From positions 1 to 64,000 of the forward strand of contig WALU01000035.1 of assembly GCA_015522685.1 (NCBI GenBank): DNA of 64,000 bases, written 5' to 3'. Both the position numbers and the translations under genes were made by a program. Source of the stretch: Thermoproteota archaeon. GTDB taxonomy: Archaea; Korarchaeota; Korarchaeia; Korarchaeales; Korarchaeaceae. This document shows positions 8,731 through 25,547 of the stretch, piece after piece (position 1 is the stretch's first letter; the number at the start of each line of letters is the position of its first letter). The notes below the pieces were generated by a model, which saw only the letters and a program-made list of their open reading frames with translations, did not search any database and was not told the DNA's origin.

Positions 8731-9957
8731 TTACTCGAATCTCAGAGCTTTAGCAGGTTCTAGTCTTGCAGCTTGAAGGGCAGGAGGTAAAGCTCCCAGT
8801 ATCGTGATAAGCAATGTAACTCCCGCTATTGCTGCAGCATGCTCTGGTAAAAGGATAGGGGCTACTGAAAATGTAGTGGTGCGAGGACCTCCCATCTCTC
8901 TAGGACCCATAATCATAGCGAGAAGAAGCGATGTCCCGTATCCAAGTAGCATTCCAGATATTATAGCAATGCTACTCATTAAAACCCCTTCAAAGAGGAA
9001 TGATAGAGATATATCCCTCTGAGAAGCTCCCATTGCCCTCATTACTCCTATTATTCTCGTCCTCTCAGTCACAGCTGTGAACATTGCATTCATTATGCCT
9101 ATTGAGGCCACAACTATGGTCATTGCAGCTATAGCTCCCAAGACGAGAAGAGACATATTAACGACAGCATCCAGCTGCTTTTGAACGTCTTTCATAGCTA
9201 TTGGGAATGCTATATCTCCATATTCATCGCTAAGCTGATCTATAACGTAATCCACGCTATTCATATTATCGGCTATTATTGCCAAGATTGTATATCCCTT
9301 TTCCCCCGTGAGCTTCACATAGAGCCTTGTAGCATAATCTATAGGAGCAAGAACGGATCTATCTACATCAGCCACGATAGAGGTCCCGTAGGGGGCTAAT
9401 ATTCCATATATCCTAGGCCTTGTAGTTAGGATGTTATCAAAGGAGAATTTAGCGCCCAGCCCTATTAGGTCTCCCATTTCATCCGATGGAATTTCTTCAA
9501 GTAATTTTGAGCCTAATATTACTGCTTCTTCCTTCTGATTTGATGGCCAATCACCATACATTAGCTTTATTCCTGGAAAAATATCTTCCACATAATTCAT
9601 GTCTATTCCCATTATCACATAGGTTTTCGACTTACCTAAGAGGGTAGAGTTCATGGGGATCCTTATTAGAGGCATAACTGTCTCCACTCCATCCATGTCT
9701 TCTATTTTGCTTATATCTATGTCATTAAAGCTTTTTTCCCTAGTCGTCAGGTATATGAGCCTCATGCTGCTTCCCTTGAATATGTCCTTCAAGGCAAAAC
9801 CGTAGCCCGTAGCGAATGATATAACAGCCGTCAATGTTAATACTCCTAAGAATATTCCTAGCAATGTCAGGGTTGCTCTTTTCCTTCTACTCATCATGGC
9901 TTTAAAGGAGAATCGTATTATATCACGGAACTTCAACCTCTTTAGACCTCCTTCCAA
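8731..9957 (-). CDS. MacB/FtsX-family ABC transporter permease
   Basis: GIMNAMFTAVTERTRIIGVMRAMGA; PALQAARLEPAKALRFE. Confidence 0.9.
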   Translation of the reverse strand: MEGGLKRLKFRDIIRFSFKAMMSRRKRATLTLLGIFLGVLTLTAVISFATGYGFALKDIFKGSSMRLIYLTTREKSFNDIDISKIEDMDGVETVMPLIRIPMNSTLLGKSKTYVIMGIDMNYVEDIFPGIKLMYGDWPSNQKEEAVILGSKLLEEIPSDEMGDLIGLGAKFSFDNILTTRPRIYGILAPYGTSIVADVDRSVLAPIDYATRLYVKLTGEKGYTILAIIADNMNSVDYVIDQLSDEYGDIAFPIAMKDVQKQLDAVVNMSLLVLGAIAAMTIVVASIGIMNAMFTAVTERTRIIGVMRAMGASQRDISLSFLFEGVLMSSIAIISGMLLGYGTSLLLAMIMGPREMGGPRTTTFSVAPILLPEHAAAIAGVTLLITILGALPPALQAARLEPAKALRFE

Positions 9958-11524
9958 AGGACACCTTGCCTATGATTAGACCTATTATCAAGCCAGCTAA
10001 TGCCCATATTACACCATATTCTGGATTCATCAGCCCTGATGTTTGGCTAGATTTGACAGAAGTTGATGTAGCTTGACCTTCTATTGTCACTTCCCTTCTA
10101 GATTTCTTCCAATTTTCTGGGGATGCAGTATATCTAACTGTAACCCCTATCTTCTGTGAAAACTTGCTTAGGTCGACTTTACATGAGAGAACAAACCCGG
10201 TGCTCTCGCCATTGTCTAATTCCCCTAAGTAGGTAGATGTACCGATGCATACCCCTGAGTCTATCGTAACATTCACGTTATCAGCTTCCCTGTTCCCGAC
10301 ATTTGCTAGATTACCTCTAATTCTCAATCTTCCTATGCTGTAACTCGCATCTAGAGAAGATATTACTACTCTAGCCTCCTCTATCCTGCCAAAGCCAATT
10401 TCAGTTGTAAGCTCCTTTGTAGTATCCTTGTTATCCTCTTTTTCCTTGTACATGAATTGTAGATCAAGCCTATATGATTTGCTATCCTCGGAGGGAAGTA
10501 GACTTATAGAGACGTTTCTAGAGTTGCCCGGATTCAGATTACCTAGATCAAAGAGAGAGGGACCCAGTATTGTCAGTGTTTTAGAAGAGAGTTGGAGTCT
10601 AACCTTTCTTGCGGTTTCATCTCCTACATTCTTCACTATCAATCTTACATCATTAGATATACCAGCGTTGAGCAAGTGTTTATTTGATAGTATTATTATA
10701 CTTGGAGCAGTCTCTTCCTCACCATTTTTCTCTACAAGCGGTATATTGAAGACTTTCGAGACACCATAGTCCTTCCCCCCACTCGAGTAATGAATAATAA
10801 CCGCGACCTTATCGAAATCTTGGTCAACATTCTCGCCAACATAAGCACCTATATCGTACCTCACTATCGATCCTGGTGTTAATAAGGCTCCTCCGCTTAT
10901 ACTGGGATTCAATATTCTGATAAGAGGAGCACTTAGCTGAACAGAAGTTATTATTGCATCCTCCTTACCCATGTTCCTCAAGGTTAGATAAAGTGTAGAT
11001 GATTCTTCTTTGACTCCTTTCCCAGCTAAGGTAAAATCTATAGTGGATCTCCCTTTAACTTCCAGTTTAAAGTAAAAGTTGTTTGATCCTTTCTTGACAA
11101 CATCACCATCTTTGTTCAAAATTTCATAGGATATGTTGAGGCCGAAGTCATACCAGTTAGGAGGGGTCTTAGTGGGCACCTCTACATTGAACGTGAGGGA
11201 GAATCCTTCACCATCCTTGAAGTTTTCCTTCGCCAGCTGAATTCCCGGCAATAATGCCTCTTTATTACCCCCATTTGGATTTTTAAGGGGGTTTGGTATC
11301 GTTAAAGTGGCTTCCAAGGGCCTTAAAGTATGGTCCTTCTCTATAGAAACTTGAAGCAGGGTAAAGAGGGGAACTATGCCATCTCCTGAATGTACTATAA
11401 TTGAACCTTTTTGATTCCCCCAGCCATAATCGATAAGGCTTACGCTTCCCTTTATAGCTAACAATGAAGTTAGAGGTAGAAGTAAAACTATAAATATAGG
11501 AAGGATAAACTTATGTCTTAACAT
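9923..11524 (-). CDS. Secreted, C-terminally anchored Ig/CARDB-like (COG1361 S-layer-type) protein
   Basis: Signal peptide, repeated 'L.N.G...A..V' beta-sandwich motifs, C-terminal TM plus basic tail; lies between the ABC ATPase and permease. Confidence 0.7.
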   Translation of the reverse strand: MLRHKFILPIFIVLLLPLTSLLAIKGSVSLIDYGWGNQKGSIIVHSGDGIVPLFTLLQVSIEKDHTLRPLEATLTIPNPLKNPNGGNKEALLPGIQLAKENFKDGEGFSLTFNVEVPTKTPPNWYDFGLNISYEILNKDGDVVKKGSNNFYFKLEVKGRSTIDFTLAGKGVKEESSTLYLTLRNMGKEDAIITSVQLSAPLIRILNPSISGGALLTPGSIVRYDIGAYVGENVDQDFDKVAVIIHYSSGGKDYGVSKVFNIPLVEKNGEEETAPSIIILSNKHLLNAGISNDVRLIVKNVGDETARKVRLQLSSKTLTILGPSLFDLGNLNPGNSRNVSISLLPSEDSKSYRLDLQFMYKEKEDNKDTTKELTTEIGFGRIEEARVVISSLDASYSIGRLRIRGNLANVGNREADNVNVTIDSGVCIGTSTYLGELDNGESTGFVLSCKVDLSKFSQKIGVTVRYTASPENWKKSRREVTIEGQATSTSVKSSQTSGLMNPEYGVIWALAGLIIGLIIGKVSFGRRSKEVEVP

Positions 11525-13314: not shown

Positions 13315-14589
13315 ATGGATTTTCCATTCTTTGGAGAGCTAAGAGATAACTGGAATCATGCATTGAAGGTTCTTAGAGCGAGGAGAAACTTACCTTTTGG
13401 GCAAGCTGAGGATATCATTAAGGAAGTAAAGGAGAGGGGATTAAAGGAGGTTTTGAGGCTTACGAAGAAATTCGATGGCATTTCTCTATCTCAAGATGAA
13501 ATATATTCGGAACCTGAGAATGGAGTGTTACCCTACTTCGTGGAAGAAGCGTTCAATAGACTTCTTTCTTGTGCAAAATCCTTGTTAAATAAATCGGAGT
13601 GCCATATAGGAGGGTTCTCAACTTCAATGGAATGGTTAAGGCGCTCTCCCTCGATGGGAAAACCCATCAGTAGAGTTGGGATATACGTTCCTGGTGGTAA
13701 CTATCCCCTCTTATCCTCACTTCTCATGGCCATAGCTCCTGGAATAGCTGCAGGGGCAAAAGAATTTGTAGTTGCAACTCCTCCTAGGAATTATAATGTA
13801 ATAGAGCATGCTTCAGCTAGGTTTGGAGCCAGAGAGTTCCTGAAAGTTGGGGGAGTGCAGGCAATTGCTTCTTTAGCTTATGGTTTGCCAGAGATAGGAC
13901 TTCGTCCAGTAGATATAATAGTAGGACCGGGGAATTCTTACGTTACAGCAGCGAAGCATATAGTATCTAGAGATATTAAGATCGATCTACTGGCTGGTCC
14001 TTCTGAAGTGCTCATATTATCGGACGGAAGCTTTCCAGTGGAGCTGATCGCTTTGGACATGCTTGCCCAAGCGGAACATGGACCTGATTCCATTGCTCTT
14101 ACCCTGACAACTTCACGTGAAGAGGCCATTGAGCTGAGATCTTATCTACTTAGATATCTTAATGTGGATAGATTTAGATCCCTCAGAAGCAGGAGTGGTA
14201 TCCTCTATGGGAAGAGCAAAGAGCTTGTTAAATTCAGCGATATCTTCATGCCCGAACATTTAGAGATCTTTGGTGATTTCCAAGCACGAATGGCTGGTGC
14301 CATATTTGAGAAGACAGGCGTTGTATTTGGTGATTATGGATATACCGGAGCTAATCATATCTTACCTACTGGAGGAACCCTACTGGAGAGACCCGGTTTG
14401 AGTCCATTCTCCTTTTTCAGGGGTTTTAGCGGTTCTTATTCTTATAGGCAAATGGGTAGTTTAAAATCTCAAGCTTCTGTATCTGAAATGACCGCTCATT
14501 TCGCTAGATTAGAGGGATTAGAGTATCACGCTAGAGCAGCTGAATCAAGGGAAAAACTTTATAAGGAGATCTCTGCTCAGGAAAGCTAA
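13315..14589 (+). CDS. hisD: Histidinol dehydrogenase
   Basis: GIYVPGG, GPGNSYV, AGPSE, QAEH, PEHL, GDYxxxGANHILPT, EGLEYHA. Confidence 0.9.
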   Translation: MDFPFFGELRDNWNHALKVLRARRNLPFGQAEDIIKEVKERGLKEVLRLTKKFDGISLSQDEIYSEPENGVLPYFVEEAFNRLLSCAKSLLNKSECHIGGFSTSMEWLRRSPSMGKPISRVGIYVPGGNYPLLSSLLMAIAPGIAAGAKEFVVATPPRNYNVIEHASARFGAREFLKVGGVQAIASLAYGLPEIGLRPVDIIVGPGNSYVTAAKHIVSRDIKIDLLAGPSEVLILSDGSFPVELIALDMLAQAEHGPDSIALTLTTSREEAIELRSYLLRYLNVDRFRSLRSRSGILYGKSKELVKFSDIFMPEHLEIFGDFQARMAGAIFEKTGVVFGDYGYTGANHILPTGGTLLERPGLSPFSFFRGFSGSYSYRQMGSLKSQASVSEMTAHFARLEGLEYHARAAESREKLYKEISAQES

Positions 14590-14590
14590 C

Positions 14591-14626
14591 GAGATGATAT
14601 GTATGGGGGATTTAGTTCACCTCTAG
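14591..14626 (+). promoter_or_regulatory. Leader mini-ORF MGDLVHL* (candidate His-sensing +1 frameshift site)
   Basis: SD-like GAGATGA 14591-97, 5-nt spacer, ATG GGG GAT TTA GTT CAC CTC TAG (14603-14626); +1 frame reads T-S-R-R-E-F-L-K into the binding-protein ORF; twin element at 21320-21355. Confidence 0.6.
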
Positions 14627-15743
14627 GAGAGAATTCCTTAAGATGGCAGTTGTAGGAACTGCCGGCCTTCTTGTCGGTGGATCTGCAGGCTATTTTTATA
14701 GATCCTCTGTTTCTCCCAGTAAGATAAAGCAAGAAGCTAGCGAAGCCAGTAAGGAGATTAAAGGAAAGGTTGCCATGTATGACTGGAGCAATAATAACAA
14801 TCCGTTCGTCTTTAAGTTATTCAAGGATAAGACTAGTGTAAATGTAGTGTACGACCTCTTTGATAGCGATGATGAGGCTTTCGCTAAATTAGAGGCAGGT
14901 GGTAGCGGATACGATGTAGTGGTTTTAACTGATAAATACGTTAGAAATGCGATAGAGAGGGGTTACGTTAGAAAACTCGATCAAAGCTCTATTCCAAACA
15001 TAAAGTACCTTGATCCTAAGTTTAGAGAATTAAAATATGACCCGGGAAATAAGTATTCTGTGCCATATGGATTTGGCAGTACTGCCATAGGATATAACTC
15101 AAAGAAAGTAAAGAATTTAACAAGTTGGAAGCAGTATTTCGATCCAAGCTACCTATCCAATTACAAGAAGAAAGTATCTATGCTCGAGGATCCACCTGAA
15201 GTGATGTTTGCTACCAAGCTCTATTTAGGTAAGAGTCTCGACGATTGGAGCGATTCTACTATGGGAGAAATTAAAGAAGCATTAATAAGGCAAAAGCCTT
15301 ACTTAGCGGGATATTTCAGTACGGATAAGTATATTCCCAATCTAGAGAATGGGTCTCTCATTGCATCCCACGCCTATAATGGCGACGTTTTAACAGCTAA
15401 ATATGGGGATGGATTCAAGGATCTGTCTTATCTAATACCAGAAGAGGGTGCTGTGGCGTGGATAGATAACATGCTCATCCCTAAGGATGCGTCTAACCCA
15501 GAAGCCGCTCAGGCTCTGATAAATTTCCTGATAGATCCTCTCGTTGCAGCATATAAAACGATCTCTGTTTACATTGCAATGCCAATACCAGCAACTAAGA
15601 AGCTATTACCACCAGAACTGGCCAGCGAGCCAGCTCTTATACCACCACCTGATCAGATGAAGAAGTTACATCTATCACCTGTGCTAACTGATAAGATCAG
15701 GGCAAAGATCAATGACGTATGGGAACAAGTCTTAGCAGCTTAG
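14603..15743 (+). CDS. PotD/PotF-family ABC substrate-binding protein with Tat signal; N-terminus needs a +1 frameshift (in-frame ORF 14643-15743)
   Basis: GGSGYDVVV, DPGNKYSVPY, PEEGAVAWIDNMLIPK motifs; SRREFLK is encoded upstream of the first in-frame ATG and bounded by in-frame TAG 14613-15. Confidence 0.85.
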
Positions 15744-15750
15744 GTGTGAA

Positions 15751-17034
15751 ATGTTGGTTTCAATACCAAGGGGATTCAGGGATTTCCCTCCCCCATTTAT
15801 GATACTTAGGAAGAGAGTAATGGAAAGGGTAGAGGAGATATTCAAGAGATATGGCTTTGATCCCTTCGATACTCCAATCTTAGAGTTATGGGAGACCGTG
15901 AAAGGTAAATTAGGAGAAGAAACTGAAAATAGGCTCATGTTCATATTTCCAGATTTTCTAAGCAAAGAATGGTATGCTCTCAGATATGAATTAACATTCC
16001 CTCTCGCTAGGTATATAGCTATGCACCCTGAGACTCCTCTGCCCTTTAAGAGATATCATATAGGGAGGGTATGGAGGCATGAAGAGCCCCAGAAAGGAAG
16101 GTATAGAGAGTTCTGGCAATGTGATGCAGATATAGTGGGCAGTCCTTGTCCAGAAGCTGATGCTGAGATAGTCAAGCTAAATATTGAAGTAATGAGAACT
16201 TTTGGTTTCAGAAGATATGTAGTGAAGATCAATGACCGGAGACTCCTGACAGGAATCTTTGAGGAAGAGCTTGGTATAGCAAAACCAGCTCCTGTATATA
16301 GATCTATTGATAAACTGGATAAAATTGGAGAAGCTGGAGTGAGAGCTGAATTACTCGCTAAGGGAATGAATAGTCACCTAGTCGATAAAATAATCAATTT
16401 AACTAGGATTAGAGGTAGGTTCGAGGAAGTCTACGAGGATTTGAGAGATATTAGCAATGAAAAGGTGAAGACCGCTTTAGACCATCTTGGGAGCATATTC
16501 GGCATAATTGAGGATGATAAACTAATCTTTGATCTATCCCTTGTCAGAGGTCTAGAGTATTATACAGGACCTGTCTTCGAAACAATTGTGAAGGAACCTA
16601 AGATAGGTTCTCTAGCTGGAGGTGGGAGATATGATAAGCTGATAGGTCTCTACTCCGGGAAAGATGTACCGGCCACAGGCGCCAGCATCGGTATAGAGAG
16701 ATTAATAGACGCCGGTCTGGAGCTTGGCATATTATCCCTTAGAGATAAGAGCTACATTCAAGTATTTGTAGTGAGTGTGAAGAGAGATTCCTGGAGATAT
16801 GCGTGGAAGGTAGCGGAGTTTTTAAGAAAGGAGGGATTCTATGTTTCCTTAGATCTTATGAGGAGAAGTCAATCAAATCAGAGAGAGTATGCAAGGAAAC
16901 TTGGAGCCAAGGTGATCGTCTTCGTTGGACCGAAGGAAAAAGATAAGAGGAGCGTTACCATATATTCAAATGGAATCAGGAGAACAGTTAGCCTTGAGAA
17001 TGCAGCTAGGACTATCAATGAGGTCATCTCTTGA
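15751..17034 (+). CDS. hisS: Histidine--tRNA ligase
   Basis: PRGFRD, LRYELT, RHEEPQKGRYREFWQCDAD, LVRGLEYYTG, GGGRYD, GIERL. Confidence 0.95.
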   Translation: MLVSIPRGFRDFPPPFMILRKRVMERVEEIFKRYGFDPFDTPILELWETVKGKLGEETENRLMFIFPDFLSKEWYALRYELTFPLARYIAMHPETPLPFKRYHIGRVWRHEEPQKGRYREFWQCDADIVGSPCPEADAEIVKLNIEVMRTFGFRRYVVKINDRRLLTGIFEEELGIAKPAPVYRSIDKLDKIGEAGVRAELLAKGMNSHLVDKIINLTRIRGRFEEVYEDLRDISNEKVKTALDHLGSIFGIIEDDKLIFDLSLVRGLEYYTGPVFETIVKEPKIGSLAGGGRYDKLIGLYSGKDVPATGASIGIERLIDAGLELGILSLRDKSYIQVFVVSVKRDSWRYAWKVAEFLRKEGFYVSLDLMRRSQSNQREYARKLGAKVIVFVGPKEKDKRSVTIYSNGIRRTVSLENAARTINEVIS

Positions 17035-17671
17035 TCTTTATCCTATAATTTGTTTTCAAATAGGATATATCATCTAGAAGCTTCCATATTTCATCCAAAA
17101 AGCTAGGAAGCATATAGAGAGGGATTATTGGTATACCGTGAAGGATCCTATCGCTGAAATCAAGCCATGTAACTATCGCTGGGATTATTAGACTCTCTCC
17201 TTCTTCTATTTCTATGCCTTTTATATCTTCTATTTTGAAGGCACCAGATAGTGATTTAGTTCTCTCTAATTGTTTTACAGCTGCCTTCTTAAGCTTATAT
17301 ATCTTAGAAGAAGATCCCTTAGACCACATCTTGCAATCCACTGATAAAATTAGTTCACCTAAAGCTCCGAGTATATCTATCTCATATCTCCTCTGATTAA
17401 AAGAGAATTTAACTCCCTTTATAGCATCTACTCCAGACATCTGGAAGCCCTTTAGGCAGAAATCCTCGAATCTCTTCCAGTCTAAGAGCGCTGCAGCTCT
17501 CTCAGGAGAAATGCCTATCTTAATCAATGCAATAGCTACTGCTACAGGATTATCAGCTGGATTTCCTCCCCCTTCCCTTCTTAGATATGAAAGAAGATCC
17601 TCAGGAATAGATTTCCAATTCTCACTAACCATCTCATGGAGACTTTTCTCAGCTATCCTCTTAAGGTCCAC
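17024..17671 (-). CDS. PD-(D/E)xK restriction-endonuclease-fold protein (Mrr/NERD-like)
   Basis: LDWKRFEDF...EIDIL.....VDCKMW...QLER. Confidence 0.7.
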   Translation of the reverse strand: MDLKRIAEKSLHEMVSENWKSIPEDLLSYLRREGGGNPADNPVAVAIALIKIGISPERAAALLDWKRFEDFCLKGFQMSGVDAIKGVKFSFNQRRYEIDILGALGELILSVDCKMWSKGSSSKIYKLKKAAVKQLERTKSLSGAFKIEDIKGIEIEEGESLIIPAIVTWLDFSDRILHGIPIIPLYMLPSFLDEIWKLLDDISYLKTNYRIKIKR

Positions 17672-17746
17672 CTTCTATACTATTCAAGAAAGAAAGAGTG
17701 ATATATACATTTGCCTTCTTCTATCAGTTAGAGAAGGTTGACTTAA

Positions 17747-19033
17747 TTGGGACTCACATTAGCTGAGAAAATCTTGAGTATGAGAATGGGAAAGAAAGTA
17801 AGAGCCGGAGACGTTGTCATTAGCCCTGTAGATTATGCAGCAGCCCAAGATGGAACGGGCCCTCTAACTATAAGAGTAATGGAGGAGCAGCTAGGCGTAA
17901 AATCTGTTTTTGAGCCAGGTAGAGTTATATTCTTCTTAGATCATGCTGCTCCGGCTCCCAGAAAGGAGCTAGCTAATGATCATAAGTTCATCAAGCAGTT
18001 TGGTAAGGAGGTAGGTTGCATAGTTTCAAGGGAGGGGGAAGGTATAATTCATCAAAGACTTGTGGAGGACTTCGTTTCCCCCGGAGATATAATAGTTGGG
18101 GCTGATTCTCATACATGTACCTCAGGTGCTTTAGCAGCATTCGCCACAGGCATGGGATCAACGGATATAGCAGTAGCTATGGCTTATGGCAAGACTTGGT
18201 TTAGGGTTCCAGAGACCATAAGGATCGAGGCTAGTGGAGAACTTCCATTTGGGGTATTTCCAAAGGATCTCATGCTTTACATAATCGGCAAGCTCACCGC
18301 TGAAGGCGCAACATATAAGGCTCTAGAATTTCAAGGAGAAACCATAAGAAATCTAACTCAGGAATCGAGATTTACTTTATCTAACATGGCAGTCGAAGCA
18401 GGAGCTAAGGTGGGCTTAATAGAGAGTGATGACGCGACTAGAAGATATCTGAAGGAAATGGGAAGAGAAGGTAAATATAAGGAGATAAAGGCTGATGAAG
18501 GAGCTAGTTATGAGAGCATTATGTATATAGATTCCGAAGATCTAGTTCCCTCTTTAGCTGCACCTCATTTTGTAGATAATTATAGGACAATAGATCAGCT
18601 GGAAGGTCTGAAAGTGGATCAAGTCTTTATCGGGACATGTACAAATGGAAGATTTGAGGATTTACTGGTTGCAGCTACAATCCTAAAGGGTAAGAAAGTC
18701 GATCCTAATGTGAAATTTATAGTAGGACCTGCATCGAGGAAAGTGCTAGAGAAAGCCGTTAAGGAGAGCCTGATCGATATATCTATCAAAGCAGGAGCTG
18801 TGATTATTCCTCCAGGATGCGGTCCATGCGCAGGCGTACATGCTGGAGTGCCATCGGATGGAGAAGTTGTAGTTTCCACACAAAATAGGAACTTCAGAGG
18901 AAGAATGGGTAATCCTAACTCTGAGATATATTTAGCAAGCCCTGCTACGGCAGCAGCCACAGCAATAAAGGGAGAAATTGCTGACCCTAGAGAATTCCTC
19001 CCAGAGGATTTTAAGGTCAAGATAGTAAGCTAA
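17747..19033 (+). CDS. leuC: 3-isopropylmalate dehydratase / homoaconitase large subunit
   Basis: TLAEKIL, DH, GADSHT, GTCTNGR, CGPCAG, STQNRNFRGRMG, LASP; LeuC vs HacA specificity not resolvable by eye. Confidence 0.85.
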   Translation: MGLTLAEKILSMRMGKKVRAGDVVISPVDYAAAQDGTGPLTIRVMEEQLGVKSVFEPGRVIFFLDHAAPAPRKELANDHKFIKQFGKEVGCIVSREGEGIIHQRLVEDFVSPGDIIVGADSHTCTSGALAAFATGMGSTDIAVAMAYGKTWFRVPETIRIEASGELPFGVFPKDLMLYIIGKLTAEGATYKALEFQGETIRNLTQESRFTLSNMAVEAGAKVGLIESDDATRRYLKEMGREGKYKEIKADEGASYESIMYIDSEDLVPSLAAPHFVDNYRTIDQLEGLKVDQVFIGTCTNGRFEDLLVAATILKGKKVDPNVKFIVGPASRKVLEKAVKESLIDISIKAGAVIIPPGCGPCAGVHAGVPSDGEVVVSTQNRNFRGRMGNPNSEIYLASPATAAATAIKGEIADPREFLPEDFKVKIVS

Positions 19034-19049
19034 TGAAGGAAGCGTTATT

Positions 19050-19547
19050 ATGAAGATAAAAGGTAGAGCTTGGAAGTTTGGAGACGGGGTGAGCACAGAT
19101 GATATCGCCCCCGGTAGATACTTCTACCTGAGAAGTCAACCAAAAGAGCTAGCCAAGCATGCATTTGAGGACTTGAGGCCAGACTTCGCCAAGAACGCGA
19201 AACCAGGAGATATAGTTGTAGGAGGAAGGAATTTTGGACAAGGATCTAGCAGAGAACATGCTCCTCTGATAATAAAGCTTAATGGAGTTGGAGCCATAAT
19301 AGCTAAGAGCGTGGCTAGGATCTTCTTCAGGAATGCGATAAATTTAGGGCTACCTATGATAATAGTTGACACAGATAGGATCAATGATTGCGATGAGATA
19401 GAGATCGATTTGAAGGAAGGTATAGTAGAGGATTTAACTAAAAAATTCAAGCTCGAAGCTAAGCCGTTGCCAGAGGCTATGCTGAAGATTCTTAGAGATG
19501 GGGGATTAGTACCCCATGTAAAGAAACACGGTAGCTTTACTTTGTAG
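19050..19547 (+). CDS. leuD: 3-isopropylmalate dehydratase / homoaconitase small subunit
   Basis: STDDIAPGRY, NFGQGSSREHAP, ARIFFRNAINLGLP. Confidence 0.85.
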   Translation: MKIKGRAWKFGDGVSTDDIAPGRYFYLRSQPKELAKHAFEDLRPDFAKNAKPGDIVVGGRNFGQGSSREHAPLIIKLNGVGAIIAKSVARIFFRNAINLGLPMIIVDTDRINDCDEIEIDLKEGIVEDLTKKFKLEAKPLPEAMLKILRDGGLVPHVKKHGSFTL

Positions 19548-19950
19548 GTGAGAGTTTACTCTTCCTCATTTTCTTTTAGCACTAAAGGTGAGATAGTTTT
19601 GTAGATTATAACAGAGAGAGCTAATGAGATAGTTAGGGAAGTTGGAATAAAGGGAGGCTTAGCTCTGCTATCTGCTCCTCATGCAACCGGAGCTATTATA
19701 CTGAATGAAAATGATCCATCTTTGTTGGAGAATCTGAAGACCTTACTAGAGAAAATTATATCCCAGGAAATGGTTATAAGCATCCATTCAATGCACATTC
19801 TCACCTAAGATCTATCCTCATGGAATCAAGTAATGTTACCCTAGTAAATAATGGAAGACTAAGTCTGGGCGTATGGTGAAGCATAATATGGTGGAAGTTG
19901 ACACTCGCCCTAGGGAAAGAACAGTGCTCATCACCATTGTTGGGGAGTAG
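19548..19950 (+). pseudogene. yjbQ: YjbQ/UPF0047 family pseudogene
   Basis: Hand translation gives APHATGAIILNENDPSLL, YKHPFNAHSHLRSIL, GRLSLGVW*, EVDTRPRERTVLITIVGE*; two internal stops and two frameshifts. Confidence 0.85.
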
Positions 19951-21236
19951 ATGGTTCCTCAACATAGAGAGCAAATAGTCGCAGGCTGAAAAGCCCTATG
20001 ATTGCGCTCACCAGAAATGAAATTGCAGCCCCTGGGAGTGTAATTCCAATTAATAGGATCTTCTTAGGGGCATACTGTTGATATAGCTGACCACCAACTA
20101 TTGGGCCCAGTACTGCGCCGATATTAAAGATAGCTTGTACCGTCCCAAATACCTTTCCTCTAATTTCTCTAGGAGAGATATCGGCCTGTAGTGCTCTGAA
20201 AGATGGGATATACATTAAAAGCTATAGATCTAAGTGTAGAGAGAAATGTAAGACCCCAGGTCTCTTGCTACTGGGATAACTGCTGTCATCAATCTTGCAA
20301 AAGCGCCTGAATTTATCACGATACCTTTTCTACTGATCTTATCGCTCAATCTTCCACCAGGATAAGCAGCAGCCAAGCCTATTATCCCTGATATTGTAGT
20401 AACTATTGCTATAGCAGATGGATCTGATGATATAAATTGCATTATATAGAGACTCGTATCGGAGCTATAAATCCCATAGCAAATCCATTGGCTAGTCCCA
20501 TGATATATAACGTGTTTATACTTCTCCTAATTGACTTTGATAACTCTATCTTAACTAGAGATTCTTTCTTCCTCTTCAGTGCTTTATCGCGATTCTCTCT
20601 CAGTAGAAAGGAGGATATTATTGATATGGCAAACATGACAGCAAGGCCAAGGAAGGGGAACTTAAGGGCCCATTATAGGTCCTTTATGCCGAGTGTGTAT
20701 ATTCCAAACTTGTACAAAGCAACCCCAATGGCCGGACCTCCTATCATAGCTAAGTTAGATGATGTCATGTAGATAGCCATGGATTGCCCTCTCATCTTAC
20801 TTGGCACGCTATCCATGAGCAGAGCTTCAGCTACTGGCCATATCATAGCAGATGCGACAACCTGTAATCCTCTTATCAAGTATAGATGGTATGCGCTGGA
20901 GGATAAGAGATAAGCATGGGCCAGAACCGAGTATATAACCAAACCGAGTATTATCAGTTTCTTTCGACCCAATCTATCACTTAGCGATCCAAAATATCTA
21001 GCAAGCATGGCTCGAGTTAGCATAAAAGCAGACATCATGAGTCCATACTCTAAAGCATATTGAGAGGCCTGTTTTATGACTCCAAGCTCTTCTGGAAGCT
21101 CGCTAATTCCACCTTCAAGATAGACCACGTAGTATGGAAGTATTGGCGATATAGCTCCAAAACCAAGTGATATGACGAATCCAATTATTGGGAGTACTAT
21201 GACGTTCTTCTTTTCCATTAAGATACCTCTTAACAC
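19931..21236 (-). pseudogene. MFS transporter pseudogene (four fragments)
   Basis: ORFs 20673-21236, 20442-20636, 20230-20442 and 19931-20215 together form one MFS: GSLSDRLGRKK, GRLSDKISRK, REIRGKVFG. Confidence 0.85.
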
Positions 21237-21319
21237 CCCGAAGGGGCTTTCTCATCTATGCAGGAAATTTCGTATACTATTATTTTTAACTATATGAGCG
21301 TCGCTAACTATAACCTTCT

Positions 21320-21455
21320 GAGGTGAATGATATGGGGGATTTAGTTTGGCTTTAAGCCTTTTGATCTAGTTTTGCTACCTTCTGAAAAGAATAATGTGAT
21401 CCTAAAGCTTCCGTTGGAGGGGTTGGAGGTTCTCTTTGAGGGTGATTCTTCATGA
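21320..21455 (+). promoter_or_regulatory. Leader mini-ORF MGDLVWL* plus +1-frame linker ORF coupled to trpB2 (candidate Trp-sensing switch)
   Basis: SD GAGGTGA 21320-26, 5-nt spacer, ATG GGG GAT TTA GTT TGG CTT TAA (21332-21355); +1 frame open 21348-21455, ending in TGA that overlaps the trpB2 ATG. Confidence 0.6.
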
Positions 21456-22738
21456 TAAGGATAGATTTATCTCGAGAGGAGATTCCGAGTTATTGGTATA
21501 ACATCGTATCAGATTTGCCTGATCTTCCACCACCAATTCATCCAGCTACTAAGAAGCCTTTAGGACCGAGAGATTTTTATCCCATATTCACAAAGGAATG
21601 CGTTGACCAAGAGTTTTCCAAGGAGAGATACATAAAAATACCTGATGAGCTTAGAGAACTCTACATTAGGATAGGAAGGCCTACTCCTCTATATAGGGCT
21701 AAGAGACTTGAGAAATATCTTAAAACACCAGCTAAAATTTATTATAAGAGGGAAGATGTAACACCGACTGGTAGCCATAAGCTAAATACCGCGATTGTTC
21801 AAGCTTTCTGCGCTGCTAGGGAAGGCTTGGAGTATTTGACAACGGAGACCGGTGCCGGTCAATGGGGAAGTGCTTTATCCTATGCTACTGCTATGATGGG
21901 GATAAAAGCCATTGTGTTCATGGTGAGGATATCTTATCTACAAAAACCTTATAGAAAGCTAGTGATGAAGCTTTATGGAGCAGATATATTTCCTTCTCCC
22001 AGCGATAAGACCGAAATTGGGAAGAAGTACCTAGAAAAAGATCCAAATCATCCTGGTTCACTTGGAATAGCTATAAGCGAAGCTATAGATATGGCTAAAA
22101 ATAGTGATAAAGCTAGATACTCATTAGGGAGCGTACTCAATCATGTACTGCTCCATCAGACAATAATAGGCCAGGAGGTGAAGAAGCAATTTGAACTAAT
22201 CGGTGAGAAGCCTGATATCCTCATAGGTTGCTTTGGCGGGGGAAGCAATTTCTCCGGTTTCACATTTCCATTCATCGAGGAAATCTTGAAGGGAAAGGAG
22301 AAGTATGATGTTATTGCAGTTGAGCCTACGGCAGCTCCATCAATGACCAATGGGGAGTATAGGTATGACTTTGGTGATAGTGCTGGTATAACTCCTTTAA
22401 TAAAGATGTTCACTTTAGGACATGATTTCATTCCGCCACCAATCCATGCAGGTGGGCTTAGATATCATGGAGCTGCTCCTACAGTCAGCCTACTGAAATC
22501 TAAGGGGATAGTTAGATCAGTCACCTATGCCCAAGAGGAGACTTTTGAGGCTGGTAGAATTTTCGCAATGACCGAAGGTATAATACCAGCTCCTGAGACA
22601 ACTTATGCCGTTAAGGCAGCTATGGATGAAGCATTAAAGGCAAGAGAGAATAGAGAAGAAAAAGTAATAGCATTCAACTTTTCTGGTCATGGTTTACTTG
22701 ATCTTAAGGGATATGAGGATGTATTGAAGATCTCCTGA
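21452..22738 (+). CDS. trpB2: TrpB2 (stand-alone tryptophan synthase beta-like PLP enzyme)
   Basis: [46 protein letters not shown]; no trpA nearby. Confidence 0.93.
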
Positions 22739-24110: not shown

Positions 24111-25547
24111 CTATGCAGGTATGCTATACCTCTCTATTATTTCTTCTAAGCCGAGAACTTCTACATCCATTCCCCTTAGTGTTTTCAAATATTTAGCTGC
24201 TTTTGTTGAATTCGTCGTTACCTTTCTTATACCCATATCCTCCAACGGAGAAACTACCATGCAAGTATCTGCCCACACTTTAGCACCAAAACTCTTAATT
24301 AGATGAATTAAGCCAGATCTCTCTATCTGAGAGAGTATGGCCCTAGAGGTGTAAAGCCAAAATCTTATTGTTGCAATACGGCCATTTATTAACGAGACTA
24401 TCCGCTTAAATTCATCGAGAGAAAGATGAGGACAACCGATCACTACAAGATCTGATCCACCACTAAAGGTACTCAGTTCATCCAGTGTTGCCTTTAAATC
24501 CTTTAAATTAACCCTTATAGATTTACTCGGTCTCTTAAATAAGTTGGGGGTTATCTTAGGTATATGAAATATTTCTATTGAGCCCGATGCTGCACCAGCA
24601 GCGGCTAATGCCTTCAGTTCCGGAATGTATAGTTTCTTCAAACCTTTGAATAATGGGACGGAGTTGGGATATTCCTTCCCTATGAAATAGCCTAAAGCAT
24701 AGTAATCAACTAACCTATTTAAATCTCCTTCCACTTCAACTGCTATAGTTGGCTTCCTGTTCCTATCCAAATGTCTGCCATATAATGGAGTATAGCCTGT
24801 AGCTGCAGCTATTATTGTTTTTGCCCCGCCTTCCCTATTGCTTCTAGCTCCAATTATACTATTTATAAAGGAGACAGCGCTAGATTCCCCCCAAGATATA
24901 TGCTCTCCATAATGAGGGAGGTTTCCCGCAAGATAAGGAGTGCATGTAAATGATGGTATTGCCCCCATTTTGATTAGGGATTCCACTATATTCATTTGCT
25001 CCCTAGCAAAGTTCTCTGGGATGCCCATCTCTTTCCATCTATATAAATCCATTCCTAGCGGATTTGTTGTCGCAGCTACTTTGAACTTAATCTCATTTTC
25101 CATATTTTTCAGCCATTCTTTTCCCGTATCTCCTATTGTGGCATAGGAAACACCTGATATGTGCACTGAATGTATCCTGACGAACCCTTCAGCCTCAGAG
25201 ATTGATGCTTCCTTCTCTAAGTATCTCCTAAATTCCTCTCTAATGTCTCTATTTTCTAACTTAATTTCCTTAGCTCCCTTGAGTTCTACAGATATTCCAG
25301 CTAGCTCAGCGCTTATGGTAATGCTATCAGGCTCTTCAAGTACTATCTTAATAGGGGCTGTCTTATACTTCTTAAGAGCAAAAAAAGTATATGCGCCTAC
25401 TGTCGATCCTATAGAATGAGGAACATAGACTATCCTGCCTGCTAGACTCTCTCCCCTCTGAGGATGATCTTGTTGTATGATTTTGCCTGTTTTAATATCT
25501 ATCCCATCAAGCCAAGAGATGGGTGCTGTCAGCCTGAGCTCATTCAA
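24111..25547 (-). CDS. Fused aconitase X (DUF126 swivel + DUF521 catalytic domain), probable phosphomevalonate dehydratase
   Basis: N-terminal GIDIKTGKI..DHP..GESLAGR..P.SIGSTVG; then HISGVSY, FTCTPYL, WGESSA, GARSNREGG, IGCPH, DTCMVVSP. Confidence 0.85.
   Translation of the reverse strand: MNELRLTAPISWLDGIDIKTGKIIQQDHPQRGESLAGRIVYVPHSIGSTVGAYTFFALKKYKTAPIKIVLEEPDSITISAELAGISVELKGAKEIKLENRDIREEFRRYLEKEASISEAEGFVRIHSVHISGVSYATIGDTGKEWLKNMENEIKFKVAATTNPLGMDLYRWKEMGIPENFAREQMNIVESLIKMGAIPSFTCTPYLAGNLPHYGEHISWGESSAVSFINSIIGARSNREGGAKTIIAAATGYTPLYGRHLDRNRKPTIAVEVEGDLNRLVDYYALGYFIGKEYPNSVPLFKGLKKLYIPELKALAAAGAASGSIEIFHIPKITPNLFKRPSKSIRVNLKDLKATLDELSTFSGGSDLVVIGCPHLSLDEFKRIVSLINGRIATIRFWLYTSRAILSQIERSGLIHLIKSFGAKVWADTCMVVSPLEDMGIRKVTTNSTKAAKYLKTLRGMDVEVLGLEEIIERYSIPA

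Follow-up and report, generated by a model that had tools for sequence, protein, structure and literature searches.

What is the function of a seven-residue open reading frame (ORF) with a single tryptophan codon ahead of an archaeal trpB2 gene, and why does the +1 frame that leads out of it contain no stop codon as far as the trpB2 start? To our knowledge, little is understood of how archaea adjust the synthesis and uptake of amino acids and the charging of tRNA to supply, and we know of no ribosome-mediated sensor established in these organisms. Herein, we analyzed a stretch of 64,000 nucleotides (nt), called the window throughout, from a Thermoproteota archaeon of the Korarchaeaceae (GCA_015522685.1, contig WALU01000035.1, positions 1-64,000 of the forward strand), in which this arrangement occurs. 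We consider it probable that the leader is a programmed +1 frameshift cassette gated by a hungry sense codon, comparable in its working to the frameshift site of the bacterial release factor 2 gene, prfB.

A conserved mini-ORF with one tryptophan codon precedes trpB2

The leader is situated in the intergenic region between trpB2 (21452..22738, + strand), which encodes a stand-alone tryptophan synthase beta-like protein of 428 amino acids (aa) with a Pfam PALP match, and a divergent, apparently broken MFS transporter gene. A TATA-like box, TTTTTAA (21283..21289, +), lies about 45 nt 5' of the mini-ORF start and is likely the promoter of a leader-trpB2 transcript; the (T)TTTTAA block is kept in an alignment of 20 loci. 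It is followed by a Shine-Dalgarno (SD) sequence, GAGGTGA (21320..21326, +), and by the sensor mini-ORF itself, ATG GGG GAT TTA GTT TGG CTT TAA (21332..21355, +), which reads MGDLVWL* and shares its reading frame with the trpB2 ATG at 21452.

For comparison, trpB2 was located in 41 related genomes; the orthologues are 56-89% identical, and relatives also keep the beginning of the protein, M[IL]R[IV]DL. The comparison within the genus comprises 20 loci, the window and 19 others, a 21st genome being excluded because its trpB2 is split across two contigs; the phylum set comprises 43 genomes. A mini-ORF encoding MGDLVW(L/P)-stop, with its own SD, was found ahead of trpB2 in 20/20 genus loci. The SD takes the form GGAGGTG, GGGGGTG or GAGGTGA, stands 5-6 nt ahead of the start at every locus, and complements the 16S rRNA 3' end GGATCACCTCC, as read in a relative (G012). 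The nucleotides ATGGGGGATYTAGTTTGG are invariant, and within the first 18 nt only the Y of YTA varies, plus one GTG start. Since the first five codons are thus unchanged at synonymous sites (bar TTA/CTA and the GTG start), an added constraint at the RNA level is indicated. The codon following TGG is CTT, CTC, CTA, CTG or CCT (Leu or Pro), and the stop may be TAA, TAG or TGA, at a position that is identical in 19/20 loci; a variable codon after TGG together with interchangeable stops at a fixed place is the signature of a translated ORF. Across the class, the cassette motif occurs once per genome ahead of trpB2 in 29/40 members.

The +1 frame stays open up to the trpB2 start

The proposed shift site of the window is GTT_TGG (21344..21349, +), that is, STT plus the sensor codon. 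From it a +1-frame spacer ORF (21345..21455, +) opens at a TTT directly after a TAG, continues for 36 sense codons (FGFKPF...GDSS) and ends with a TGA (21453-55) that overlaps the trpB2 ATG (21452-54) as ATGA. In the transcript this AUGA stop/start overlap is the classic geometry of translational coupling. The SD of trpB2, GAGGGTGAT (21438..21446, +), is contained in the 3' end of the spacer ORF, and GGAGGTG-type sites are conserved 5' of the start. An initial annotation of this DNA had pointed out the mini-ORF, the open +1 frame, the ATGA overlap and two segments, ACCTTC (21377-82) and GAGGGT (21438-43), all of which are present in the sequence. It was also right that the linker is open, and its count of 35 codons began at Gly; the full count from TTT is 36.

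Between GTT_TGG and the trpB2 start, stop codons number 0 in the +1 frame at 20/20 loci, 2-6 in frame 0 and 1-4 in frame +2. The distance from the mini-ORF start to the trpB2 start takes 8 distinct values from 102 to 159 nt, every one a multiple of three. Over the same loci, spacer lengths range from 30 to 49 codons, the sequences have diverged past recognition and the peptide is not conserved. The +1 spacer frame ends in ATGA at 13 loci, in ATGCTGA at 4 and in GTGCTGA at 3. A comparison of the 5' regions of trpB2 in relatives had been set beforehand as a check, and the open +1 frame and the stop/start overlap were kept at all 20 loci. The claim that the linker couples the leader to trpB2 therefore stands as regards the open frame and the overlap, which persist despite an unconserved peptide, and it gains from other Trp genes in the +1 frame (described below); reinitiation itself and dependence on tryptophan supply we infer.

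Could a 36-codon open frame and an ATGA overlap have arisen by chance in an AT-rich intergenic sequence? In dinucleotide shuffles of the spacer, a stop-free +1 frame has P = 0.079, which is not significant for the window taken singly; this favors chance and counts against a sensor. When the largest shuffle P of each of 11 diverged spacer clusters was taken, the product was ~3e-9, a figure that assumes independent clusters and is only approximate for related genomes. Conservation in 20/20 loci, the constant phase and the recurrence before Trp genes in another phylum already contradict an accidental origin, to which we attach next to no credence.

The composition of the spacers was also examined. 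TGG occurs in 1/690 codons of the +1 frame versus 8/690 in each of the other frames, which is only suggestive of avoidance of the Trp codon in the +1 spacer frame.

The cassette leads into other tryptophan genes

We define the canonical cassette as a start codon, GGG GAT YTA STT and a sensor codon, with an SD ahead and six codons to the sensor. At nine loci from three other genera and a metagenome, the +1 frame is an ORF of 152-165 codons with a DGHHR motif, followed by trpB2. This ORF begins at the cassette and terminates on ATGA, GTGA or TTGA at the trpB2 start. Pfam returned no match for it; from the DGHHR motif, we tentatively take the product to be mini-SerK-like. We rejected the idea that the window spacer is a decayed fragment of this gene, since BLASTP gave no alignment and the spacer frame is open in 20/20 loci. 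The concern, raised in the initial annotation, that the linker might be a piece of a longer gene was likewise not upheld: the 152-165-codon gene found elsewhere also begins at the cassette and has no similarity to the window spacer.

Other genes are reached in the same manner. In two genomes of a fourth genus, a CTT_TGG cassette runs in +1 directly into the TrpRS ORF. The +1 frame is TrpE, by Pfam, in three genomes of another archaeal phylum, and two further TrpE fusions carry the variant cassettes MGNRLW and MGNCVW. At two loci trpD is reached via a +1 spacer of 32-33 codons, which ends at ATGATTAA and ATGGTTAA, and at three loci a LivJ-type (Peripla_BP_6) binding-protein gene is reached via a +1 spacer of 56-61 codons with its stop 9-11 nt into the gene. 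The distance of the spacer stops from the first base of the next gene's start codon is 4-11 nt throughout.

The TrpE fusions bear directly on how the +1 frame is entered. In one of them (L071), none of ATG, GTG and TTG occurs in the TrpE frame ahead of codon 31, which is inside the conserved N-terminal domain, and the public annotation has a shortened protein of 434 aa. Protein-level conservation among the three TrpE orthologues extends to the residues just past the shift site.

Many public TrpE calls (P0143, P0144, P0147, P0149, P0153, P0157 and others) begin with or contain the string '...WGI[AV]FG...' or 'VFG/MFG', and some of these calls are labelled Bathyarchaeia. The string is the cassette read in the +1 frame, which suggests that variant cassettes ahead of trpE may be widespread and mis-annotated.

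The window's own genome, a 92%-complete assembly, carries a variant form ahead of trpS (contig 44, ~9836-11030, minus strand; L330). Its leader, ATG CCA GGT GAC TTC CTT TGG CTC TGA, reads MPGDFLWL*, and the +1 frame enters TrpRS, as it does in 8 genus loci. Its nucleotides are not those of the canonical form. What it retains is the peptide GD[LF][LV]W and an SD-like AGGTGA, placed at an unchanged distance from the slip codon. The TrpRS behind MPGDFLWL* has an SD and an ATG of its own 12 codons past the shift site. The search that gave these loci allowed 3 mismatches and returned mostly noise; the 8 loci are those that passed a filter demanding TrpRS in the +1 frame.

The distribution of the cassette was surveyed on a wider scale. 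Scanning one genome per prokaryotic species gave 72 loci, of which 22 have TrpB2, TrpRS or the mini-SerK-like ORF downstream, 2 have TrpE, 1 is at a contig end and 47 are others. The 47, mostly bacterial, have neither an SD nor a Trp gene and were treated as chance matches. A metagenome scan, with the pattern loosened by one degenerate base, yielded 5 genuine cassettes among the 119 matches listed; all 5 are of the same phylum type, and there were no new gene kinds among the matches listed. With a looser pattern, 151 genomes of the second phylum gave 7 matches, 2 of them the new TrpE fusions, while the rest look like chance. Several 15-nt matches (e.g. L294, L299, L300 and L308-L312) were treated as chance because they lack an SD or a downstream +1 ORF, and a reversed-pattern control yields matches at a similar order.

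A histidine-codon cassette in the same window points to entry in the +1 frame

A search with the first 13 nt of the cassette revealed a second copy in the window, in which the sensor codon is CAC. This His cassette, ATG GGG GAT TTA GTT CAC CTC TAG (14603..14626, +; MGDLVHL*), is identical in 10 relatives. Directly 5' of it is hisD (13315..14589, +; histidinol dehydrogenase, Pfam Histidinol_dh), whose end contains a TATA-like box, TTTATAA (14558..14564, +), about 40 nt 5' of the cassette ATG and kept in the window and the 10 relatives. The +1 frame of the cassette is the ORF of a PotD-like substrate-binding protein (14616..15743, +; Pfam SBP_bac_8), and 8 nt past it follows hisS (15751..17034, +; histidyl-tRNA synthetase, Pfam tRNA-synt_His and HGTP_anticodon), probably in the same operon. 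The order hisD, His cassette, binding-protein gene, hisS is kept in 10/10 relatives.

Directly past the shift site, the +1 frame reads F-T-S-R-R-[DE]-F-[LI]-K-x-A-V-V-G, which fits the consensus of twin-arginine (Tat) signals; in the window, T-S-R-R-E-F-L-K occupies the first codons past the site (14619-14642, +). Ahead of the RR motif there is no start codon. Position 14643 begins an ATG codon in the window and in one relative (L278); elsewhere TTG, TTA or CTG takes its place. The two arginines are preserved via synonymous changes (AGG AGA, AGA AGG, AGG AGG). Distant homologues start MTSRREFLK..., MAKSSRRDF... and similar, and the RR motif is within the first 35 residues in 43/47 of them. Gene calls in the genus begin past the Tat signal, at 366 or 339 aa. 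Given that no start is available before RR, the Tat signal would be translatable only by starting at the cassette and shifting +1. We consider this the strongest single argument for a cassette start followed by a +1 shift.

Ribosomes might instead enter the +1 ORFs by initiating at a non-canonical codon, or by reinitiating past the mini-ORF stop. Near-cognate CTG, ATA and ATT codons do occur early in some +1 ORFs, and some TrpE variants have GTG or ATG at the site itself. Reinitiation would leave the conserved RR untranslated: the MGDLVHL* stop is inside the S-R-R codons, so that reinitiation after termination cannot make the binding protein. As to non-canonical starts, neither a start codon nor a near-start position is conserved among the 20 trpB2 spacers, one of which (L014) lacks any ATG, GTG or TTG, and the phase of the +1 ORFs is fixed relative to the cassette. 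Entry by either means in place of a slip is, in our estimation, highly improbable.

A cysteine-codon form and the agreement of sensor codons with gene function

In six genomes of the second phylum (L285-L287, L304, L306, L313), the cassette reads ATGGGGGATTTAGTT TGC TAG (MGDLVC*), and the +1 frame is a winged-helix protein of 74-78 codons. The neighbors were examined in L314, where the winged-helix gene stands between an Aminotran_5 (cysteine-desulfurase-like) gene and a DUF362/4Fe-4S iron-sulfur gene.

A cassette-like TTG/ATG GGG GAT YTA CTT was also seen in L302, L303 and L307, with a zinc-ribbon protein of 64-69 codons in its +1 frame. CTT or TAT follows at these sites; two copies have no +1 start and one has an ATG. 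The zinc-ribbon loci are uncertain candidates for the same device.

The sensor codon matches the function of the genes concerned: Trp is found with five gene kinds, His with hisD, the binding protein and hisS, and Cys beside Aminotran_5. This match bears on constitutive recoding, in which the +1 shift would proceed at a fixed rate regardless of amino-acid supply and would do no more than fix how strongly a gene is expressed or supply an MGDLV N-terminus. Such recoding is equally compatible with everything that speaks for frameshifting. A fixed-rate device would, however, have no need of an A-site codon that tracks the function of the gated gene for Trp, His and Cys, all three of them amino acids with one tRNA species, and TGG seems to be avoided in the spacer frame. 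We regard constitutive recoding as unlikely. At the level of sequence, the comparisons establish the cassette and its translation signature, an obligatory continuity in +1 and the correspondence of sensor codon and function.

The proposed shift site and mechanism

STT followed by the sensor codon is the sole position common to all cassettes, and STT is followed by T or C. The window for the shift is bounded on one side by the +1-frame TAG just before TTT and on the other by the frame-0 stop, which lies 0-2 codons past the sensor codon in canonical cassettes, and up to 18 codons past it in some TrpE and TrpRS fusions. Since STT is the only codon within these bounds that all cassettes share, the peptidyl-tRNA is placed on GUU or CUU. 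Genes for tRNA-Val(GAC) and tRNA-Leu(GAG) are present, and ARAGORN found one gene each for tRNA-His and tRNA-Cys. By the P-site re-pairing rule, the move from GUU to UUU or UUC keeps two of the three pairs for tRNA-Val(GAC); in the trpS forms the sequence is CUU_U. Neither a 16S 3' end nor a tRNA-Trp gene turned up in the assembly of the window itself in the motif search and ARAGORN runs. For each of Trp, His and Cys there is just one tRNA species, which suits a gauge based on hungry codons.

Upstream of the slip codon by 3-4 nt is an internal SD-like run, GGGGGAT (21334..21340, +), that is invariant even at synonymous positions. Given the 16S 3' end read in G012, both GGGGGA of the canonical form and AGGTGA of the trpS variant can pair as the prfB stimulator does, and by analogy with prfB the run would have a stimulatory role.

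We propose the following course of events. A ribosome would initiate at the cassette's own SD and ATG and come to hold Val (or Leu) peptidyl-tRNA in the P site, on GUU (or CUU), while UGG awaits Trp-tRNA. With charged tRNA-Trp plentiful, UGG would be decoded and translation would terminate one or two codons on. With charged tRNA-Trp scarce, the P-site tRNA would slip from GUU to UUU, probably aided by the internal GGGGGA 4 nt upstream, as in prfB, and synthesis would continue in the +1 frame. The shifted ribosome would cross the 36-codon spacer, whose sole purpose would be to be stop-free, and would terminate on the UGA of AUGA, atop the trpB2 start and just past its SD; in this way, translational coupling would bring it to trpB2. 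The +1 frame of other genomes would be the regulated protein itself: TrpRS, TrpE, or the mini-SerK-like protein followed by trpB2. A swap of the sensor codon would re-target the device, CAC gating the binding-protein gene and hisS, and UGC the winged-helix regulator. From the sequence features, we infer that the +1 shift takes place, that the supply of aminoacyl-tRNA may set its rate and that termination at AUGA may raise the translation of trpB2.

Induction of trpB2 at Trp shortage would be sensible for this organism. TrpB1, TrpE and TrpD were not found in its own 92%-complete genome and no TrpA scored above the cut-off, so TrpB2 would serve salvage.

A second route into the same frame had been suggested in the initial annotation, at CTT_TAA at the end of the mini-ORF. 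This idea did not survive the comparison: CTT stands directly before the stop in 3/20 loci, and one locus (L019) has CTT plus two more sense codons.

RNA structure and considerations that weigh against the sensor

The initial annotation had also proposed that ribosomes crossing the leader unmask the SD of trpB2, by opening a pairing of ACCTTC with GAGGGT. This pairing appears in the minimum-energy fold of the window, in folds run with 37 C parameters for a host that is apparently a thermophile. Over the 20 loci, the predicted pairing of the trpB2 SD is 0.43-0.88, versus means of 0.57-0.84 for shuffled spacers, and hence not higher, so that the unmasking step was given up as a conserved feature. 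Folds of the 20 leaders revealed no shared structure and no conserved terminator or anti-terminator, and an Rfam search of window positions 14000-22000 gave 0 matches at E <= 1, neither Trp_leader nor any other family.

These results bear on a sensor that stalls without frameshifting, in which a pause at UGG would affect transcription, the mRNA fold or how accessible the trpB2 start is, and the open +1 frame would be incidental. Bacterial attenuators are typified by a short conserved ORF that contains a cognate codon and is followed by biosynthetic genes, and trpB2 has an SD of its own, both of which accord with stalling. Against it stand the single Trp codon of the leader, the failure to find a conserved terminator or anti-terminator, an SD pairing that does not exceed that of shuffled sequences and the lack of an Rfam match. 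Stalling would also leave unexplained the stop-free, in-phase +1 frame in 20/20 loci, as well as a TrpE, a Tat signal and a regulator that lack starts in the +1 frame. We find stalling of this kind very unlikely.

Several observations, beyond the shuffle test of the window alone, weigh against the frameshift cassette. Both trpB2 and the genus trpS have a strong SD and start codon of their own, so that translation independent of the leader is possible, and the predicted folds offer no reason why independent initiation at trpB2 should be blocked. In some TrpE variants, a GTG or ATG of the +1 frame stands at the shift site itself and might serve as a start. Re-pairing of tRNA-Val(GAC) from GUU to UUU leaves a first-position mismatch and is weaker than the CUU to UUU re-pairing of prfB. 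The family of the binding protein behind the His cassette is annotated as polyamine-binding, and the link to Cys is based on the gene neighbors of one genome.

Relation to known systems

According to a recoding review (PMC5009743), prfB is autoregulated by a programmed +1 frameshift at CUU_UGA_C with an upstream SD-like AGGGGG. The cassette resembles prfB in having a short ORF0 followed by a +1 ORF1 without its own start, an NUU codon in the P site that slips to UUN and a G-rich SD-like element nearby upstream. A downstream +1 ORF without an initiation site of its own is found in the binding protein of the His cassette, in the TrpE of L071 and in the 20 spacers; the genus trpS and trpB2 itself, in contrast, have their own SD and ATG. 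The SD-like element is present 4 nt ahead of the slip codon as GGGGGA (canonical) or AGGTGA (trpS variant). In contrast to prfB, it is at a sense codon (UGG, CAC or UGC) and not at a stop that the ribosome would wait, and the quantity sensed would be charged tRNA instead of a release factor. Because its A-site codon is a sense codon and not the UGA stop, the cassette is no member of the prfB family, though it would work alike. The cassette is further distinguished by being archaeal, by a site only 5 codons past the start, as a leader, by an SD-like spacing of 4 nt versus 3, and by GUU, which re-pairs worse than CUU. In the window, moreover, the +1 frame encodes no protein and would only carry ribosomes to the next start.

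In E. coli, Gallant and co-workers described +1 frameshifting at hungry codons during amino-acid starvation, as related in the same review (PMC5009743), and frameshifting upon Trp shortage is reported for human cells (PMC8942854). The proposed shift shares with these events a +1 slip when the A-site codon awaits its aminoacyl-tRNA. It differs from hungry-codon errors in that the site is conserved, set in a stimulatory context and wired to cognate genes. The 2016 review describes the natural use of hungry-codon frameshifting as unclear (PMC5009743). If the proposal is true, the cassette would be a natural regulatory use of it and a sense-codon analogue of the prfB loop, through which the trpS and hisS synthetases get direct feedback from their own product.

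The cassette shares with the trpL and hisL attenuators a very small translated leader ORF, which contains a cognate codon and is followed by biosynthetic genes. It has a single cognate codon (20/20 loci) whereas theirs are in tandem, no terminator or anti-terminator was found in it, and the read-out would be a change of frame and not a refolding of RNA. It also differs from the TnaC arrest peptide: only 5 residues have been made when the Trp codon is in the A site, and the same prefix serves the His and Cys cassettes.

In the literature searched, which included passages of PMC5009743 and of the GeneTack survey (PMC3711429) and had subscription journals outside its coverage, we came across no description of archaeal frameshift leaders built on Trp, His or Cys codons. 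What is new here is a 15-nt cassette that is common to two phyla and occurs with any of three sensor codons, two of which are present in this one window, and the spacer-only design at trpB2 together with the Tat-signal argument for obligatory +1 entry. More generally, archaea may hold, as a general counterpart of T-boxes and attenuators, a portable cassette of ~18 nt (a start, GGG GAT YTA STT and any codon) that converts tRNA charging at the sixth codon into translation of a downstream frame; in at least two phyla, single-codon swaps would have created regulons for Trp, His and Cys. This generalization seems to us as apt to fail as to hold. A device so tiny and modular, with its specificity in one codon, would be testable with reporters and attractive as a synthetic switch. 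For annotation, the consequence is that gene callers truncate or mis-start the affected genes, such as the binding protein (366 or 339 aa, with the Tat signal lost) and TrpE (434 aa).

Neighboring genes of the window

The trpB2 locus is flanked by genes for the large and small subunits of an aconitase-family protein and by an AcnX gene (17747-19547 and 24111-25547), with which no connection was seen. The MFS gene divergent from trpB2 (19931-21236, minus strand) is in at least three ORF pieces of 187, 70 and 94 aa, each with an MFS_1 match, and is likely a pseudogene or a gene that needs frame changes.

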